Program-made: the position numbers and the translations under genes
In this document: positions 813-20,801 of the stretch, in pieces
Numbering within the stretch: position 1 is the stretch's first letter
How the letters are laid out: every line of letters begins with the position of its first letter
Notes under the pieces: model-generated
Database searches by the model: none
The model's input: only the letters and a program-made list of their open reading frames with translations
Told to the model about the DNA's origin: nothing
Assembly (NCBI RefSeq): GCF_000354175.2
Contig: NC_022349.1
Coordinates: 990,001-1,022,000, forward strand
DNA length: 32,000 nt
Reading direction: 5' to 3'
From: Vibrio alginolyticus NBRC 15630 = ATCC 17749
GTDB lineage: Bacteria; Pseudomonadota; Gammaproteobacteria; Enterobacterales; Vibrionaceae

Positions 813-1502
813 TTAATCCGCAATAGCTATAGCAATTGAAATGTCATCGCTACTATAGTCACCAAAATCTACTAGCCATGCATTCTTTGGGTTACCTGGA
901 GTAAGCGGATTTTCGCCAGGATTAAACTCCAAACCTATTGCTGCGTGATTCCACAAAAGGTCTTTTAAATAGCTAATATACGATTCAATTGTATTTTTTG
1001 AGCTTGCGTACTTTTGCTTATACCTTGAAATATGTGAGTCATAATCTTCAGAAAATGGTTTCGGTATATGCATAAAGTCACCACATTTTTTGTAAATCTT
1101 AATCAACTCACCATGGGTAGCTTTAATGTCTTTGCGCTGAATTTGATGTAAGCCATCGCTAAATTGGCTCTGACCTAAAGGAATTGGCATAAAGTGAGGA
1201 CTAATAGAGTTAAGTTTCTGTAGGATAACTCTCGCATTCCAGTCCTTTGTAAAATCACCATTGATGTCACTTTCTTCACCTTCAATTCGTCTAAATTCTT
1301 TATATCTATTTTTGTCGCATAAAACAGAGCTAAAGCAAACTTGTTCGACAATTTTTCTTAATTGAAGAAAGCAGAACTCAGCATCCAGCGGAGGTAAAGA
1401 GCTTTTTTCTGAATGTTTAGAAAGGCATTCATCCACAGCTCTAATCCTCACTTTGACTTCAAGCATCATAGACTGATAAATCTGATATGGTTGAACTTTC
1501 AT
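813..1502 (-). CDS. Hypothetical cassette protein, 229 aa, soluble, no recognisable domain
   Basis: ATG-initiated ORF that fills the cassette between two attC sites. Stop codon lies 5 nt from the attC. Confidence 0.7.
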   Translation of the reverse strand: MKVQPYQIYQSMMLEVKVRIRAVDECLSKHSEKSSLPPLDAEFCFLQLRKIVEQVCFSSVLCDKNRYKEFRRIEGEESDINGDFTKDWNARVILQKLNSISPHFMPIPLGQSQFSDGLHQIQRKDIKATHGELIKIYKKCGDFMHIPKPFSEDYDSHISRYKQKYASSKNTIESYISYLKDLLWNHAAIGLEFNPGENPLTPGNPKNAWLVDFGDYSSDDISIAIAIAD

Positions 1503-1522
1503 GACTATCTCACTTTAACTTA

Positions 1523-1643
1523 TAACGCCTTGCTAAGGTGTGAGTAACGCAATACAAAAGCTACCGCACAGCGCCTTAATCACCATAAGCCACCGCAAAG
1601 TAAAAATGCCACGCGTTACGAATCACTCTTAAGCAATTTGTTA
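1523..1643 (-). repeat. attC site, 121 bp, subtype shared with 2695..2816 and 9124..9244
   Basis: TAACGCCTTGCTAAGGTGTGAGTAACGC...GTTACGAATCACTCTTAAGCAATTTGTTA. Near-identical in three places. Confidence 0.9.
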
Positions 1644-2069
1644 GTACATGCGCTACTTCTATTTATGCGCTCCAAGATATTGAAAAGTGGCATGATATGA
1701 AAGACTTTGAACACTGAAGTGAGACGGGCAGCTACAAAACTTAAACTCGGTTAAGAGACGAGAGTTAGCTAGAAGAAAAACGTAATGAACTGCCCTACTT
1801 TCACTGGTTTCAAATTAGAAAAGGATTTTTTCCTCGTACTTCAACAGCCACACCAAAAATAATCATGGTTCTCTCAAAAGCCACCACAAAAGTGAAGAAG
1901 CACCAAAGAAATAGGCTAAGAGTTAGAAACCGTAAACGGTGAAATCAAAGCGAACACTCCGCATATAGTGCCACCGGAAAGAACGTGAAAGGCACTAACT
2001 GAAAGGTGTAAAGACGAGCGCCAAAACAGATAAATACTAAAACTTAGACTTTTAATGCTAAAACCGTAC
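1644..2069 (-). other. ORF-less integron cassette, family N copy A (426 bp)
   Basis: No ORF of 61 aa or more on any frame. Homologous to 2817..3243, 9245..9671 and, more distantly, 14319..14748. Plus strand is A-rich and T-poor. Confidence 0.75.
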
Positions 2070-2188
2070 TAACGCCCAGTTAAGGGGTGAAGCACGCAAT
2101 ACCGATGTTGCCGCATAGCACTTCAACACCGAAACCAACGCATACCCAAAATGCCACGCGTGCTGAATCCCTCTTGAACTGTTTGTTA
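2070..2188 (-). repeat. attC site, 119 bp
   Basis: TAACGCCCAGTTAAGG...CTCTTGAACTGTTTGTTA. Confidence 0.88.
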
Positions 2189-2695
2189 TGTTCGTAGCTT
2201 TTGTAACCCTTGTATTGCTCGGTTGGTCGAATCTATTAAGTCTGTACGCTTCAGTTTCGTTCGAATAGCCAAAGCTTCAATAAACTGCTTTTCAGCGAGT
2301 TCATAGTTACCAAGCTCCACGTTTAATTTACCCAAGTGTTGTAAACTGAAACTCAAAGAAAGCACACAACCGTAATCTTGGCTTTGTAAGTATGCTCTTT
2401 CAGCACCACCCATATCACCTGCGTATTGCAACGCAATACCCGAAATATGAGTAGACCAAAACTTGTGCTTATCGCTAGATGTAGACATTTGGACTTTGGA
2501 AGCTAGCCAATAAGCCAAACTACAAAACCCTATAACACGCAAACAATCGGCTACTAAAATTTGCTGCCACTCTAGCTTTTCTGTTTCGCCTAACACCTTA
2601 AATTTTAAGCATTTGTAAATAGTTAAAGCAAGTTTATGGAAAACGCTGAAAGTTACCCTATCCCTTTGATAGCCCACCATTTCCTCCAAGAACAT
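2186..2695 (-). CDS. Hypothetical cassette protein, 169 aa, C-terminal TPR-like helical repeat
   Basis: ORF fills the cassette. The C-terminal segment LGKLNVELGNYELAEKQFIEALAIR resembles a TPR unit. The start abuts the attC (cat 2693..2695); alternative ATG at 2680. Stop TAA lies inside the attC. Confidence 0.6.
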   Translation of the reverse strand: MFLEEMVGYQRDRVTFSVFHKLALTIYKCLKFKVLGETEKLEWQQILVADCLRVIGFCSLAYWLASKVQMSTSSDKHKFWSTHISGIALQYAGDMGGAERAYLQSQDYGCVLSLSFSLQHLGKLNVELGNYELAEKQFIEALAIRTKLKRTDLIDSTNRAIQGLQKLRT

Positions 2696-2816
2696 AACGC
2701 CTTGCTAAGGTGTGAGTAACGCAATACAAAAGCTACCGCACAGCGCCTTAATCACCATAAGCCACCGCATAGTAAAAAATGCCACGCGTTACGAATCACT
2801 CTTAAGCAATTTGTTA
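2695..2816 (-). repeat. attC site, 122 bp (same subtype as 1523..1643)
   Basis: Near-identical to 1523..1643. Confidence 0.9.
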
Positions 2817-3243
2817 GTACATGCGCTACTTCTATTTATGCGCTCCAAGATATTGAAAACTGGCATGATATGAAAGGCTTTGAACACTGAAGTGAGACGG
2901 GCAGCTACAAAACTTAATTCCAATTGAAAGACGAAAGTTGGCTAGAAGAAAAACGCACTGAACTCCCCTACTTTTACTAACTTCAAATTAGAAAAGGATT
3001 CGTTCCTCGCACTTCGACGGCAACACCAAAGAAAGACAATTCTGACTTAGTAAAAACCACGAAAGAGAAGAAGCGCCACAGAAATAGGCTAAGAGTTAGA
3101 AACCGTAAATGGTGAAACCAAAGCAAACACTCCGCATATAGTGCCACCGGAAAGAACGTGAAAGGTACAAACTGAAAGGTGTAAAGACGAGCGCAAAAAC
3201 AGATAAACACCAAAACTTATGACCTTTGATTTCAAACCCGTAC
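2817..3243 (-). other. ORF-less integron cassette, family N copy B (427 bp)
   Basis: Homolog of 1644..2069. Its only long ORF (2983..3213) is in a different frame from the ORF seen in copy C. Confidence 0.75.
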
Positions 3244-3363
3244 TAACGCCCTGTTAAGGGGTGAGCAACGCAATACAAAAGCCGCCGCATACCACCTTAA
3301 CCACTAAACGCAACGCATATTGAAAATGCCACGCGTTGCGAATCCCTCTTGAACAGTTTGTTA
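3244..3363 (-). repeat. attC site, 120 bp
   Basis: TAACGCCCTGTTAAGGGGTGAGCAACGC...GCGTTGCGAATCCCTCTTGAACAGTTTGTTA. Confidence 0.9.
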
Positions 3364-6267: not shown

Positions 6268-6284
6268 TTTTCTCCTTAATCGTA

Positions 6285-6404
6285 TAACGCCTTGCTAAGG
6301 TGTGAGCAACGCAATACCTTAGCCTCCGCATAATACCTTAAACACATAAACCGACACATAGTAAAAATGCCACGAGTTGCGAATCACTCTTAAGCAACTT
6401 GTTA
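6285..6404 (-). repeat. attC site, 120 bp (differs from 15965..16084 by one base, 6375 A vs 16055 G)
   Basis: TAACGCCTTGCTAAGGTGTGAGCAACGC...GAATCACTCTTAAGCAACTTGTTA. Confidence 0.9.
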
Positions 6405-6427
6405 TACCGCTTGGTTGAGGCTAAAAT
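6399..6427 (+). promoter_or_regulatory. Predicted sigma70 promoter of the TA operon: -35 TTGTTA (attC end) and -10 TAAAAT
   Basis: TTGTTA at 6399..6404, a 17-nt spacer, then TAAAAT at 6422..6427. This lies 35 nt upstream of the antitoxin ATG. Confidence 0.4.
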
Positions 6428-6461
6428 GACCAACATAAAAACCACTTAAGAGACCGATTAT

Positions 6462-6710
6462 ATGACCACTAGAATTTTAGCCGATGTTGCTGCAAGCATT
6501 ACTGAGTTGAAAGCTAACCCTATGAAAGTTGCAACTAGTGCTTACGGCGAACCTGTTGCTGTATTAAACCGAAATGAACCAGCATTTTATTGCGTGCCTG
6601 CCGAAGCGTACGAAATGATGATGGACAGACTCGAAGATCTGGAACTACTAGCTATCGCTAAAGAGCGTGAATCTGAAGAGAGCATTTCGGTAAATATTGA
6701 TGACCTATAA
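6462..6710 (+). CDS. Type II antitoxin, Phd/YefM (StbD/RelB-like) family, 82 aa
   Basis: N-terminus ITELKANPMKV...PVAVLNRNEPAFYCV is the Phd/YefM signature. It overlaps the downstream RelE-type toxin gene by 11 nt. Confidence 0.85.
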   Translation: MTTRILADVAASITELKANPMKVATSAYGEPVAVLNRNEPAFYCVPAEAYEMMMDRLEDLELLAIAKERESEESISVNIDDL

Positions 6711-9123: not shown

Positions 9124-9244
9124 TAACGCCTTGCTAAGGTGTGAGTAACGCAATACAAAAGCTACCGCACAGCGCCTTAATCACCATAAGCCACCGCAAA
9201 GTAAAAATGCCACGCGTTACGAATCACTCTTAAGCAATTTGTTA
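9124..9244 (-). repeat. attC site, 121 bp (same subtype as 1523..1643)
   Basis: Near-identical to 1523..1643 and 2695..2816. Confidence 0.9.
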
Positions 9245-9671
9245 GTACATGCGCTACTTCTATTTATGCGCTCCAAGATATTGAAAACCGAGATGATATG
9301 AAAGGCTTTGAACACTGAAGTGAGACGGGCAGCTACAAAACTTTACCCCGATTGAAAGACGAAAGTTGGCTAGAAGAAAAACGCACTGAACTGCCCTATT
9401 TTCACTTGCTTTAAATTAAAAAAGGATTCTTTCCTCGTCACTCAACAGCCACACCAAAAGTAATCACGGTTCTCTCAAAAACCACCACGAAAATGAAGAA
9501 GCACCAAAGAAATAGGCTCAGAGTTAGAAGCCGTAAACGGTGAAATCAAAGCGAACACTCCGCATATAGTGCCACCGGAAAGAACGTGAAAGGCACTAAC
9601 TGAAAGGTGTAAAGACGAGCGCCAAAACAGATAAACACCAAAACCTATGACCTTTGATGCCAAACCCGTAC
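9245..9671 (-). other. ORF-less integron cassette, family N copy C (427 bp)
   Basis: Homolog of 1644..2069. Its only long ORF (9475..9681) runs into the attC and is out of frame with the ORF of copy B. Confidence 0.75.
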
Positions 9672-12313: not shown

Positions 12314-12813
12314 GTCGCGAGGCACCGAGCGACAATTTTAAGCCGAACCAAACTTTGCAAACAACAAACTTTATGTGCTTTGATGCATTTAAATCAGGCG
12401 TAGTCTCAAAGCGACTACTCAATGAAACCACTTGGAACAAACAACGCCGTAGAAAACGGACTGACAACACCAAAAAACGCTTTTGGAAAACCAATCTCAC
12501 AGTGCGGACTTTCAACAAAGTCACTCAAACCAAGTGGAACTTACCACACCAGAGAAAACGCCTTTTCAGCGAGTAGATCAGCTTTTGAACCAACAAACTC
12601 ACCGAGCAGAGTTGCAACCAAAAACAGACTCTCGATTGCCCTGTTATGTCAGCACCAAAGAACAAAAAAACCGCTAGGACAATTGCAAAACTTTGTACTT
12701 AAAACAGCTGAAAATGAGTTTGGACCAACAACAATAAAGCTGTAAACCGAACAACAAGCAGCCAAATTTTGAGCTTAGAAACATGATTTTGACAGCTAGC
12801 TTTTTCTGGCGAC
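12314..12813 (-). other. ORF-less integron cassette (500 bp), A/C-rich on the plus strand, hairpin-dense
   Basis: Four mutually overlapping ORFs in different frames or strands, none with an SD. Short perfect hairpins at 12314..12333, 12400..12418, 12447..12459, 12470..12486 and 12554..12567. Confidence 0.6.
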
Positions 12814-14178: not shown

Positions 14179-14198
14179 TTACCAACTCTCGAAAGTGC

Positions 14199-14318
14199 TA
14201 ACGCCCAATTAAGGGGTGAGTAACGCAACACCAATGCTACCGAAAACCACCTTAACCACTAAAATTAACGCATAGTAAAAATGCCACGCGTTACGAATCC
14301 CTCTTGAATTGTTTGTTA
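14199..14318 (-). repeat. attC site, 120 bp
   Basis: TAACGCCCAATTAAGGGGTGAGTAACGC...GCGTTACGAATCCCTCTTGAATTGTTTGTTA. Confidence 0.9.
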
Positions 14319-14748
14319 GTACGCTGCCCTTAAAGCCTTTGGCACACACCAAGATATTGAAATATAGCACGAAAATTATGGCTTAAAACGCTGAAGCCAA
14401 ACAGACAACTACCAAACTTGAACTCAATTTCAAAACCCAAGCTGGCGAGAAGAAAAACTTGCTTAACTGACCTATTTTCACCGTTTTCAAATTAGCAAAG
14501 GATACGGACTTCGAAACTGAACGGCAGCGCCAAAGAAACTCAGTGTTTGACAAAAATGTTCCAGCATCAAAGAAATCACACCAAAGAAATAGCCAAAAAG
14601 TTAGAAACCGTAAACGGTAAATTCACAGCGAACACTCCGCATATAGTGCCACCGGAAAGATCGTGAAAGGCACAATGTTTCAGGTGTAAAGCAAAGCAGA
14701 GAAACCGGTAAACTCTGAAAATTTTAACTTTTGATGCCAACCCCGTAC
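14319..14748 (-). other. ORF-less integron cassette, family N copy D (430 bp, divergent member)
   Basis: No ORF of 61 aa or more. Patchy homology to copies A-C, with a near-identical core at about 14600..14673. Confidence 0.7.
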
Positions 14749-14868
14749 TAACGCCCTGTTAAGGGGTGAGCAACGCAATACCAATGCCGCCGCATACCAC
14801 CTTAATCACTTAAACCAACGCATAGTGAAGATGCCACGCGTTGCGAATCCCTCTTGAACAGTTTGTTA
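14749..14868 (-). repeat. attC site, 120 bp (identical to 222..341)
   Basis: Part of the exact duplication 222..688 = 14749..15215. Confidence 0.9.
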
Positions 14869-15215
14869 ACTGAGCGCCTTTCAGTTTTCGCCGATTTTTC
14901 AGCCACTTTCGCCAAAGCTCGTTTTGCTAATTAATGATTAGCAAAGCTAACTCAAATATGTGTTTAACAAAAAAATTACCGTTGATCTTTAGTTTGAAAT
15001 GCGTCTCACAACACCATACTTCGGCGATGTAAGTGCGCCGAACTAATCGCGAACGCCTTATATTATTAGAAGGCTTTATGCCGCCTTTCACATCAGTAAG
15101 CTTAAGTACCAAACTGAAATTAGTCGCATTACCTCAGCTAAGGAAACCGACCGAACACGCTAAACCTCCGAACCTAGAAACCGTATCAATGTGCTTTCGT
15201 ATTTTCTGTGCCAGT
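14869..15215 (-). other. ORF-less integron cassette, type X copy 2
   Basis: Identical to 342..688. Confidence 0.6.
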
Positions 15216-15938: not shown

Positions 15939-15964
15939 GATAATCCTCTAGTCGATAAAACGCA

Positions 15965-16084
15965 TAACGCCTTGCTAAGGTGTGAGCAACGCAATACCTT
16001 AGCCTCCGCATAATACCTTAAACACATAAACCGACACATAGTAAAAATGCCACGGGTTGCGAATCACTCTTAAGCAACTTGTTA
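15965..16084 (-). repeat. attC site, 120 bp (paralog of 6285..6404)
   Basis: Part of the duplication 6285..6998 = 15965..16678. Confidence 0.9.
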
Positions 16085-16107
16085 TACCGCTTGGTTGAGG
16101 CTAAAAT
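16079..16107 (+). promoter_or_regulatory. Predicted TA promoter, second copy (-35 TTGTTA, -10 TAAAAT)
   Basis: Same sequence as 6399..6427. Confidence 0.4.
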
Positions 16108-16141
16108 GACCAACATAAAAACCACTTAAGAGACCGATTAT

Positions 16142-16390
16142 ATGACCACTAGAATTTTAGCCGATGTTGCTGCAAGCATTACTGAGTTGAAAGCTAACCC
16201 TATGAAAGTTGCAACTAGTGCTTACGGCGAACCTGTTGCTGTATTAAACCGAAATGAACCAGCATTTTATTGCGTGCCTGCCGAAGCGTACGAAATGATG
16301 ATGGACAGACTCGAAGATCTGGAACTACTAGCTATCGCTAAAGAGCGTGAATCTGAAGAGAGCATTTCGGTAAATATTGATGACCTATAA
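16142..16390 (+). CDS. Type II antitoxin, Phd/YefM family (second copy)
   Basis: Protein identical to the product of 6462..6710. Confidence 0.85.
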   Translation: MTTRILADVAASITELKANPMKVATSAYGEPVAVLNRNEPAFYCVPAEAYEMMMDRLEDLELLAIAKERESEESISVNIDDL

Positions 16391-18587: not shown

Positions 18588-18908
18588 TCAGTATTCTGAC
18601 TGCAATTTCTTATGTAGCTTCAATATATCCGCCGCAATTTTGCTCGCTGTTTTATTTTGGATCTTAGTCATTGTATGAGCGACAGCACCTTCAACCATTT
18701 TGCCTTCAAAGTTAGTTCTAGGACCACTTTTAGTCATACGTTCTTGTATTGAACGCCAGTCACCAAGCAACTCTTCGGGAAAGTGAATATCTAAAAGACT
18801 TGAAGTCGCCTCATTGGCACTAAGCAAGCGACTTCTCGCATCTCCAGCTCCAATACACAACTCTTCTACTGCATCATCAATACGACATTTAACATATTGG
18901 TATTTCAT
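18588..18908 (-). CDS. Hypothetical cassette protein, 106 aa (paralog of the truncated 1..190)
   Basis: Starts MKYQYVKCRIDD. The 40-aa ORF-track extension is attC sequence. Confidence 0.65.
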   Translation of the reverse strand: MKYQYVKCRIDDAVEELCIGAGDARSRLLSANEATSSLLDIHFPEELLGDWRSIQERMTKSGPRTNFEGKMVEGAVAHTMTKIQNKTASKIAADILKLHKKLQSEY

Positions 18909-18939
18909 GTATAAATTTCCTCGGAACTTGGATGAGTTA

Positions 18940-19059
18940 TAACGCCCGCTTAAGTGGTGAGCAACGCAATACCGATGTTTCCGCATACCACCTAAATCAC
19001 TAAATTTGCCGCAAACCACAAATGCCACGCGTTGCGAATCCGTCTTAAAGCGTTTGTTA
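18940..19059 (-). repeat. attC site, 120 bp (attC of the first cassette)
   Basis: TAACGCCCGCTTAAGTGGTGAGCAACGC...GCGTTGCGAATCCGTCTTAAAGCGTTTGTTA. Confidence 0.88.
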
Positions 19060-19838: not shown

Positions 19839-20801
19839 ATGAAAAGTCAGTTTTTACTTAGTGTAAAAGAGCACATGCTTACTCGTCATTATGCGAATAA
19901 AACTATCGAAAGTTATCTATTTTGGATAAAACGTTTTATCACTTTTCACCAGCTCGCCCACCCATCAACACTAGCAGAAGATGATGTCATTCAATTTCTG
20001 AGTTACTTAGCGGTAGAAGAAAAAGTTGCGGTAAAAACGCAAGCTTTGGCGCTGAACTCAATATCATTTTTATATCGTGATTATTTTAAAACCCCACTAT
20101 CACTTGATATGAGATTTCAGAAATCCTTGACCGAAAAGAAACTTCCCGTTGTGTTAACCAGGGAGGAGATCCGAAGATTCGTTCAGCATATCGACCCGAG
20201 GTATAGACTCCATATTCAGCTACTTTACGGCTCCGGGCTTCGAGTTATGGAATGTTTACGCTTAAGAGTTCAAGACATCGATTATGATTATGGTGCAGTT
20301 CGCGTTTGGCAAGGAAAAGGAGGTAAAAATCGTACAGTCACATTAGCCAAAGAACTACATGAACCACTCAAAGCTCAAGTTAATTTAGCAAGAAACTACT
20401 ACTTTAAAGATAGGCACATGCCTGGTTATGCGGGCGTATATATCTCTGAAGGTTTACGACGTAAATACCCAAAAGCGGAGCTAGATTTTAACTGGCACTT
20501 TTTGTTTCCATCAACAAAGTTAAGCGCAGATCGAGACACTGGTGAACTCAGAAGGCATCATATCAATGAAAGCGCAATACAAAGAGCGGTAAAGCGCGCG
20601 GCAAGCGACGCAAGCATTGAGAAAACTGTAACTTGCCACACACTAAGACACAGTTTTGCCACGCATTTATTGGAATCTGGCGCAGACATTAGAACTGTTC
20701 AGGAACAATTAGGGCATACTGATGTAAAAACCACGCAAATCTATACTCACGTTATCGAGCGCGGGGCTGGTGGTGTGTTGAGTCCATTATCCAGCCTTTA
20801 G
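19839..20801 (+). CDS. intIA: Integron integrase IntIA (tyrosine recombinase), 320 aa
   Basis: Conserved R...HxxR...Y catalytic pattern (GLRVMECLRLRV, HTLRHSFATHLL, TQIYTHV). Also carries the integron-specific insertion (RRKYPKAELDFNWHFLFPS). Confidence 0.95.
   Translation: MKSQFLLSVKEHMLTRHYANKTIESYLFWIKRFITFHQLAHPSTLAEDDVIQFLSYLAVEEKVAVKTQALALNSISFLYRDYFKTPLSLDMRFQKSLTEKKLPVVLTREEIRRFVQHIDPRYRLHIQLLYGSGLRVMECLRLRVQDIDYDYGAVRVWQGKGGKNRTVTLAKELHEPLKAQVNLARNYYFKDRHMPGYAGVYISEGLRRKYPKAELDFNWHFLFPSTKLSADRDTGELRRHHINESAIQRAVKRAASDASIEKTVTCHTLRHSFATHLLESGADIRTVQEQLGHTDVKTTQIYTHVIERGAGGVLSPLSSL

Follow-up and report, generated by a model that had tools for sequence, protein, structure and literature searches.

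Cassettes without a gene make up 6-49% of Vibrio integron arrays according to published counts. Here we describe a family of such cassettes, four copies of which (A to D) lie in a 32,000-nt stretch of the Vibrio alginolyticus NBRC 15630 = ATCC 17749 genome (NC_022349.1, positions 990,001 to 1,022,000; hereafter the window, whose own numbering is used unless another locus is named). Gene-less promoter cassettes were reportedly found in Treponema as well, by Tansirichaiya and colleagues in 2019. In vibrios, and only there, Boucher et al. (2006; PMC1382264) reported non-coding cassettes that were conserved and had paralogues within arrays, with >80% identity from one Vibrio species to another along the full length and with no synonymous-site pattern; these authors proposed that the cassettes were either selfish elements or of benefit to the integron, through promoters or through RNAs that regulate it. 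Blanco et al. (2024; NAR 52:2961; PMC11014356) then studied 30 gene-less cassettes from four Vibrio species, 25 of which proved active as promoters on the sense strand, in most cases about as strongly as a weak Pc promoter; several had weak antisense activity and one had a strong antisense promoter. The mapped start sites often lacked consensus boxes, in silico prediction failed, and gene-less cassettes captured by mobile integrons were shown to switch on silent resistance cassettes. A further precedent is sRNA-Xcc1, a trans-acting small RNA (sRNA) from an integron cassette of Xanthomonas campestris (Chen et al., 2011, as cited in PMC8876359).

The four cassettes belong to an array that adjoins intI (19839-20801, plus strand; Phage_integrase and SAM_4 domains). 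A repeat search found 27 attC repeats in the window, all to the left of intI and reaching to ~220, and the open reading frames (ORFs) of the cassettes are nearly all on the minus strand. From the orientation of intI and of these ORFs, the minus strand is the cassette (top) strand, hereafter sense, with the plus strand as the bottom strand of attC, in agreement with an initial annotation of this DNA. The bodies are bounded by attC sites (R''...R' with GTTRRRY) in an array beside intI, as is characteristic of sedentary chromosomal integron cassettes. The same annotation had proposed four homologous cassettes of ~427 bp, with near-identical attCs in A and B, and a conserved core holding two hairpins; the repeat search and a four-way alignment recovered all four (Table 1), and the attCs are indeed near-identical in A, B and C, with a different variant in D. 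Counted from attI, the copies are approximately the 7th, 14th, 23rd and 25th cassettes, copy A being the ~25th. Their strand asymmetry was confirmed by base composition: the plus strand of the family copies is 38-40% A and 20-21% T, vs 30% and 28% over the whole window, and the plus-strand A-T difference of the remaining array cassettes lies between about -0.06 and +0.08, with one exception.

To define the family beyond the window, an exact 18-mer from the core was searched in representative genomes, and a second pattern, taken from the loop of hairpin 2 (Table 1), was searched in metagenomes. With the 18-mer, the representative genomes of 21 Vibrio species yielded 45 true loci; the species include V. 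harveyi, V. owensii, V. jasicida, V. diabolicus, V. proteolyticus, V. splendidus, V. nereis, V. nigripulchritudo, V. aestuarianus, V. bivalvicida and V. ouci. Another five matches, in unrelated organisms, were due to chance. The loop pattern added 68 metagenome loci. BLAST of plasmid-collection records showed full-length copies on Vibrio plasmids, and in the one region examined of a RefSeq plasmid (NZ_CP010886.1) the matching stretch had no annotated gene. GenBank phages gave no match to the family. A profile search over the fetched Vibrio and metagenome loci returned 144 hits, of which 117 were full length and 111 unique, with a median pairwise identity of 85% and a minimum of 59%. This number of hits is well outside what chance could give. 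The R' end of the member's own attC was found on one side in 114 of 114 members and TAAC on the other side in 114 of 116; since attC ends flank every full-length member, the family is always a cassette. The neighbours are mostly ORF cassettes in sense orientation (85 of 97 downstream and 79 of 93 upstream), and family copies also stand side by side, in five adjacent pairs, one run of three among them (L038 3852-5372, L040 18-992, L055 5082-6054, L023 2945-3920). For each window copy, the closest relative is found elsewhere, in another genome or a metagenome (86-99% identity), and not among its siblings in the window (69-91%), which indicates old lineages moving between species and no recent local duplication, and rules out such duplication as the whole source of core conservation. 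The family is best explained as Vibrio-restricted, mobilised and duplicated by the integrase, and exchanged among species.

No conserved reading frame was found in these cassettes, in agreement with the initial annotation. Copy A has no ORF of at least 30 aa. The longest one in B has 76 aa and that in C 62 aa, and these two do not share a frame; that of D is 56 aa. With respect to the size limits for gene-less cassettes (150 bp, 210 bp), copy A is within both and C and D are within 210 bp, while the 76-aa ORF of B is slightly above; the family comes within what are defined as gene-less or non-coding cassettes (Boucher et al., 2006; Blanco et al., 2024). Variability at the three codon positions was 0.089, 0.102 and 0.090, that is, without codon periodicity, the recurrent plus-strand ORFs differ in frame from member to member, and Pfam and NCBIfam gave no match for the family peptides. 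A conserved frame with a coding substitution pattern, as expected of a small-protein or type I toxin gene, was absent. The four cassettes are non-coding.

Conservation is nevertheless uneven along the cassette. As the initial annotation had noted, it peaks in the core, which we place at ~110 nt. Over all pairs of members, mean identity was 87% in the core vs 75% and 81% in the two flanks; among pairs <72% identical overall, the core retained 80% vs 61% and 67%. Columns that do not vary among the 93 distinct cores are concentrated in GTGCCACCGGA and at a few positions beyond, and the most constrained part of the core is a ~40-bp block, ACTCCGCATATAGTGCCACCGGAAAGAACGTGAAAGGCAC. A second, almost invariant island lies near the cassette's own attC (Table 1). 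The least conserved part is the middle of the cassette (~1855-1895), which is deleted in some members. Conservation this uneven within one mobile unit indicates selection on the core and not mere recent spread: the ~110-bp core is under purifying selection on its primary sequence. That these are a selected family of non-coding cassettes we regard as very likely.

Table 1. Coordinates of the four family cassettes and of the elements discussed in the text (window numbering).
Feature	Position	Strand	Remarks
Copy A, gene-less cassette body	1644..2069	-	Repeat search and alignment; cassette direction is the minus strand
attC of copy A	1523..1643	-	Plus strand is the bottom strand; R' terminates ...TTTGTTAG
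Copy B, cassette body	2817..3243	-	86% identical to A
attC of copy B	2695..2816	-	Near-identical to attC of A
Copy C, cassette body	9245..9671	-	91% identical to A; 98.8% to a copy in Vibrio sp. WZ-1 (L015)
attC of copy C	9124..9244	-	Alignment
Copy D, cassette body	14319..14748	-	Divergent subfamily; ~69-70% identical to A-C; core kept
attC of copy D	14195..14318	-	Different attC variant
Conserved core	A 1904..2013; B ~3077-3186; C ~9505-9614; D ~14582-14691	.	Alignment
Second almost invariant island, CCAAGATATTGAAAA	1672..1686	.	~30 nt from own attC; overlaps weak sense-strand site TTCATA-16-TATCTT
Hairpin 1, ACCG-TAAA-CGGT	1929..1940	+	Not maintained across the family
Hairpin 2, GTGCC-N18-GGCAC	1968..1995	+	Contains invariant GTGCCACCGGA and a nearly invariant loop
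Small (third) hairpin, GCGGA-GTG-TTCGC then TTTGATTTCA	1950..1962	-	Weak, terminator-like; pairs better on the minus strand
Best conserved sigma-70-like site, GTGAAA-19 nt-TATAGT	1939..1969	+	Antisense to the array; weak; score 7.9, family mean 6.9
Sense-strand promoter candidate of the initial annotation, TTCACG-N16-TATATG	1962..1989	-	Score 3.9, poor

Several observations were made beside these. Two loci (L119 5990-6363 and L113 1-327) carry a clean deletion of the least conserved middle (profile positions 178-233), and these middle-deleted members suggest that what matters lies in the left and right modules. The one exception in strand composition, at 12314-12811, is a sequence-unrelated, ORF-poor cassette with an equally extreme skew (plus-strand A 0.38, T 0.21), whose only ORFs are overlapping, low-complexity ones on both strands; extreme A/T skew may be a general trait of the gene-less cassettes in this array. 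A contig filed as viral in IMG/VR (UViG_2511231129_000002; L121 3022-3115 and 11011-11105) holds two family copies; it probably represents an integron region that was taken for a prophage by mistake. The family is also present, as a decayed remnant, on virulence plasmids of shrimp pathogens, namely pVOWZ4 (L052 2340-3330) and, alike, ~14 plasmids of the pVA1 type associated with acute hepatopancreatic necrosis disease (AHPND). In this remnant the attC is interrupted by an IS200/IS605-type tnpA element, and a different, T/C-rich hairpin replaces the block after CATATAGTG. We considered whether the family might be the end of an IS200/IS605 element or a miniature derived from one, but the partial, 172-nt match beside tnpA on the pVA1-type plasmids reflects an insertion sequence (IS) placed in the remnant attC, and the similarity starts past the attC R' end, outside the IS. 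On plasmid P2 of V. parahaemolyticus CHN25 (L051 1144-1266), a 40-aa 'DUF3265 domain-containing protein' is annotated within a cassette array; this Pfam family may represent translated Vibrio attC repeats.

As to what the core does, our analysis makes a cis-regulatory role the most likely one for the family, with a role as RNA possible. We tentatively put forward transcriptional control of neighbouring cassettes as the main function, a proposal that we prefer to each alternative below without holding it with confidence. The core would be cis-acting regulatory DNA read by RNA polymerase, by a DNA-binding regulator or by both, and would give the cassette promoter activity, most probably in the sense direction, through its own attC into the next cassette. 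Such a promoter would re-start expression of cassettes distant from Pc, and this advantage, added to the ease with which attC x attC recombination duplicates cassettes, would account for several copies per array and conservation across species. Promoter function is proposed because of the published behaviour of the gene-less class.

The promoter scans, however, weigh against this proposal on several counts. A sigma-70 consensus scan found no site inside the cassettes. With a weight matrix, the best cassette sites scored at most 9.4, under the median best score of 10.0 for any 700-nt piece of the window, and the best conserved promoter-like site of the family faces the antisense direction. The second-best conserved site, TTCATA-16-TATCTT at the left island, is on the sense strand and has a family mean of 5.4. 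A plain promoter would also have no obvious need for near-invariance over ~110 nt, nor would it explain the extreme A/T strand skew. Finally, none of 15 family k-mers was found among the sequences tested by Blanco et al., which places the family outside their set. An internal promoter in the core had been offered in the initial annotation as an alternative to a structured element; on the published evidence for the class it has become the likelier reading of the two, but of the sites then named the minus-strand candidate scored poorly and the plus-strand TATAGT site was weak. Judged by sequence alone, neither strand appears to hold a convincing promoter.

The direction of the best site raises the possibility that the plus strand is transcribed, antisense to the array, to give either a regulatory RNA or an antisense RNA by which the upstream cassette is silenced; the core would then comprise a promoter and the 5' part or seed of the RNA, with hairpin 2 as an element of the RNA or of single-stranded DNA (ssDNA). 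We consider this somewhat unlikely, yet it is the strongest of the alternatives to a sense promoter. The best conserved -10 element, TATAGT at 1964, is on this strand, and the plus strand is A-rich and T-poor in the family, as it is, more weakly, in those cassettes of the array that have plus-strand ORFs. Of 111 members, 104 can pair hairpin 2 on the plus strand but only ~66 on the minus strand. In copy A, hairpin 2 alone folds at -10.8 kcal/mol (z = -3.4), which is significant locally; single-sequence folds in general were just slightly better than those of shuffled sequence, the core giving z = -2.5 on the plus strand vs -1.6 on the minus strand (-1.7 and -1.3 for the whole cassette). Both sRNA-Xcc1 of Xanthomonas and the F1 antisense-promoter cassette of V. 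fischeri are precedents. However, a start after TATAGT would leave the 5' arm of hairpin 2 outside the RNA, and the essential A of this -10 is lost (as CATCTAGTG or CACCTAGTG) in six divergent members that otherwise keep the core. As to the features of an sRNA gene, there is the one weak plus-strand promoter-like site, no intrinsic terminator on the plus strand, and one weak terminator-like site on the minus strand. Neither a sense promoter nor a plus-strand transcript accounts for the extreme A/T skew.

The case for a structured element was then weighed on its own evidence. The two hairpins exist as the initial annotation described them, and the core alignment confirmed the three stem substitutions on which it had built its argument, C to T at 3110, C to T at 3166 and A to G at 9530, each said to leave a wobble pair if the plus strand folds and an A-C mismatch if the minus strand does. 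The wider family did not sustain the conclusion drawn from them. Very few independent events are involved, and among the transition types in hairpin 2, three favour the plus strand and one the minus. On the plus strand, 86 of 111 members can form hairpin 1 in full, so that it is broken in about a quarter, and its variants are partly plus-favouring, partly minus-favouring and partly disruptive on either strand. The third hairpin, with the family form GCGRA-NNN-TCCGC, pairs much better on the minus strand, where a T-rich run follows it. Of the three, only hairpin 2 persists: its stem extends to 7 bp in copy A (TAGTGCC/GGCACTA), 98.9% of its cells are paired on the plus strand, the common variant GGTAC gives G-U there and A-C on the minus strand, and one member has the compensating form GTACC...GGTAC (G-C > G-U > A-U). 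This wobble pattern and single compensation suggest plus-strand pairing, at a level that is not significant. The 18-nt loop is unaltered in 90 of 111 members; a loop that varies as little as its stem indicates that a specific sequence is recognised, and not a shape.

Formal tests gave no added weight to structure. For the three candidate hairpins over the 93 distinct cores, the observed covariation score was reached by 432 of 500 shuffles, with 2 of 14 pairs changed on both sides. RNAalifold kept only 4 bp of hairpin 2 (-2.3 kcal/mol, covariation term -0.23), and no helix of at least 6 bp with repeated covariation came out of a de novo scan that covered the entire cassette and both its strands. 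In Rfam, the whole window matched nothing at gathering thresholds, and 1500-3300 nothing even at E<=10; a search for tRNA and tmRNA was likewise negative. A structured-RNA family would be expected to match a curated covariance model and to show compensatory changes beyond those of controls, and neither was found. Since the core is so nearly invariant, covariation tests have little power here, and structure is accordingly unsupported rather than disproved. On balance, it is unlikely that the core is a strand-specific signal on the attC bottom strand or its RNA copy, in the form of a regulatory RNA or a folded ssDNA around hairpin 2. If true, such a bottom-strand signal, spread through Vibrio by integrons, would make this family of cassettes the first in sedentary chromosomal integrons to be widely conserved as RNA or ssDNA, and not just another weak promoter.

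A further alternative is that the core influences, in cis, what becomes of the cassette itself, for example as a bottom-strand signal for excision, re-insertion or survival of the excised circle, and does nothing for its neighbours. Selfishness of this kind was among the options raised by Boucher et al. (2006), and it would fit the presence of several copies per array, the adjacent pairs and the run of three, the spread across species and the restriction to vibrios; the G-T wobble pattern of hairpin 2 would also suit the bottom strand. One deletion junction falls exactly at the end of hairpin 2: in V. proteolyticus (L033 6960-7586), the first ~110 nt of the family (sense) terminate at the hairpin 2 3' end (...TTCCGGTGGCAC joined to CTTGC...) and are followed by the gene for a 237-aa TRADD-N-associated membrane protein from residue 62, its first 61 residues being gone. 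Against this, the core is unlike attC, no integrase-binding boxes are evident, the only stable hairpin is of 5-7 bp, and selfish spread alone leaves unexplained why the core is conserved over the flanks. We think it a decidedly improbable account. The L033 chimera was also considered as evidence for a 5' leader and set aside, as it is a deletion fusing two neighbouring cassettes and not a functional leader.

It is scarcely credible that the family encodes a small protein, such as the recurrent 48-aa, TTG-start ORF on the minus strand through the core: although its frame is open through the core in most members and the ORF is present in ~25 of the 47 unique full-length members examined, open frames are expected from the A-poor composition of the minus strand, copy A and many others lack the ORF or have it shifted, its ends vary between subfamilies, it has no Shine-Dalgarno sequence, its synonymous fraction (0.30 vs 0.25 expected) is like that of two control frames, and seven variants create stop codons.

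A number of other candidates were tried and rejected. On the minus strand, a sigma-54 promoter (TGGCAC-TATAT-GC) has a GG-to-GC spacing two bases short of the consensus (TGGCAC-N5-TTGC). Spacing or half-sites likewise disagree with the consensus sequences for a sigma-28-like plus-strand pair (TAAAG...GATAA), for a LexA-like dyad (CACT-N8-AGTG) and for parS or CRP half-sites. Complementarity of 10 nt between the left island (AGTTGGCTAG) and the conserved region of the Qrr sRNAs is broken in copies A and D and was taken as chance. The likeness of the cassette to the attI/Pc region was no better than that of shuffled sequence, core 11-mers elsewhere in the window numbered 4 against ~2 expected, the left arm of an internal inverted repeat (1687-1699 / 1962-1974) is not conserved, and long-range helices in the single-sequence folds are not maintained in copy D and other members.

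The array contains other repeated material. A 345-nt cassette occurs twice (342-686 and 14869-15213), with longest ORFs of 61 aa on either strand, and may represent a further cassette without a gene; in the sense direction, one of its copies is immediately upstream of family copy D. In the repeat search, 222-521 equalled 14749-15048 at 100% identity, a match that covers part of this cassette. Other duplicated segments are 6278-6577 / 15958-16257 (99% identity) and 1-300 / 18719-19018 (94%).

The role of non-coding cassettes bears on whether Vibrio arrays are silent stores of genes or are actively expressed. The family offers a clean test case in this regard, with >100 copies spread over at least 21 species and with an invariant, sharply delimited block of ~40 bp that is open to mutation. 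Knowing what reads this block, whether RNA polymerase, a regulator or an RNA partner, would provide a mechanism for the promoter activity that gene-less cassettes often show. Should the cassette carry a promoter, silent resistance cassettes could be switched on once mobile integrons capture it.

Compared with the systems already described, the family reproduces every listed property of the cassettes of Boucher et al. (2006; BMC Evol Biol 6:3): no ORF, no codon pattern, full-length homologues >80% identical in other vibrios, paralogues within an array and occurrence in vibrios only. That class is known by description without comparable sequences, and our family may be one of theirs; the sharply conserved core and the strand skew seen here are not described there. 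A literature search with the core sequence itself found no paper in the library searched, and the family, its sharply conserved core and its breadth appear uncharacterised in the searchable literature. With the promoter cassettes of Blanco et al. (2024) the family shares the absence of a gene, a similar size, residence in sedentary Vibrio integrons, attC boundaries and a scattered position along the array. Some of theirs, however, resemble degenerated genes or have scattered start sites, whereas the family core is tightly conserved across species. The likeness to sRNA-Xcc1 is that of an ORF-less integron cassette with a non-coding function, in a different host genus and with no sequence relationship. 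Promoter activity was measured by Blanco et al., whereas our family, in this comparison as in that with sRNA-Xcc1, is known from its sequence only. Taken together, these comparisons place the family, itself uncharacterised, in a class that is already known and was given a functional reading as promoter cassettes by Blanco et al. (2024): the conserved non-coding cassettes of Vibrio.

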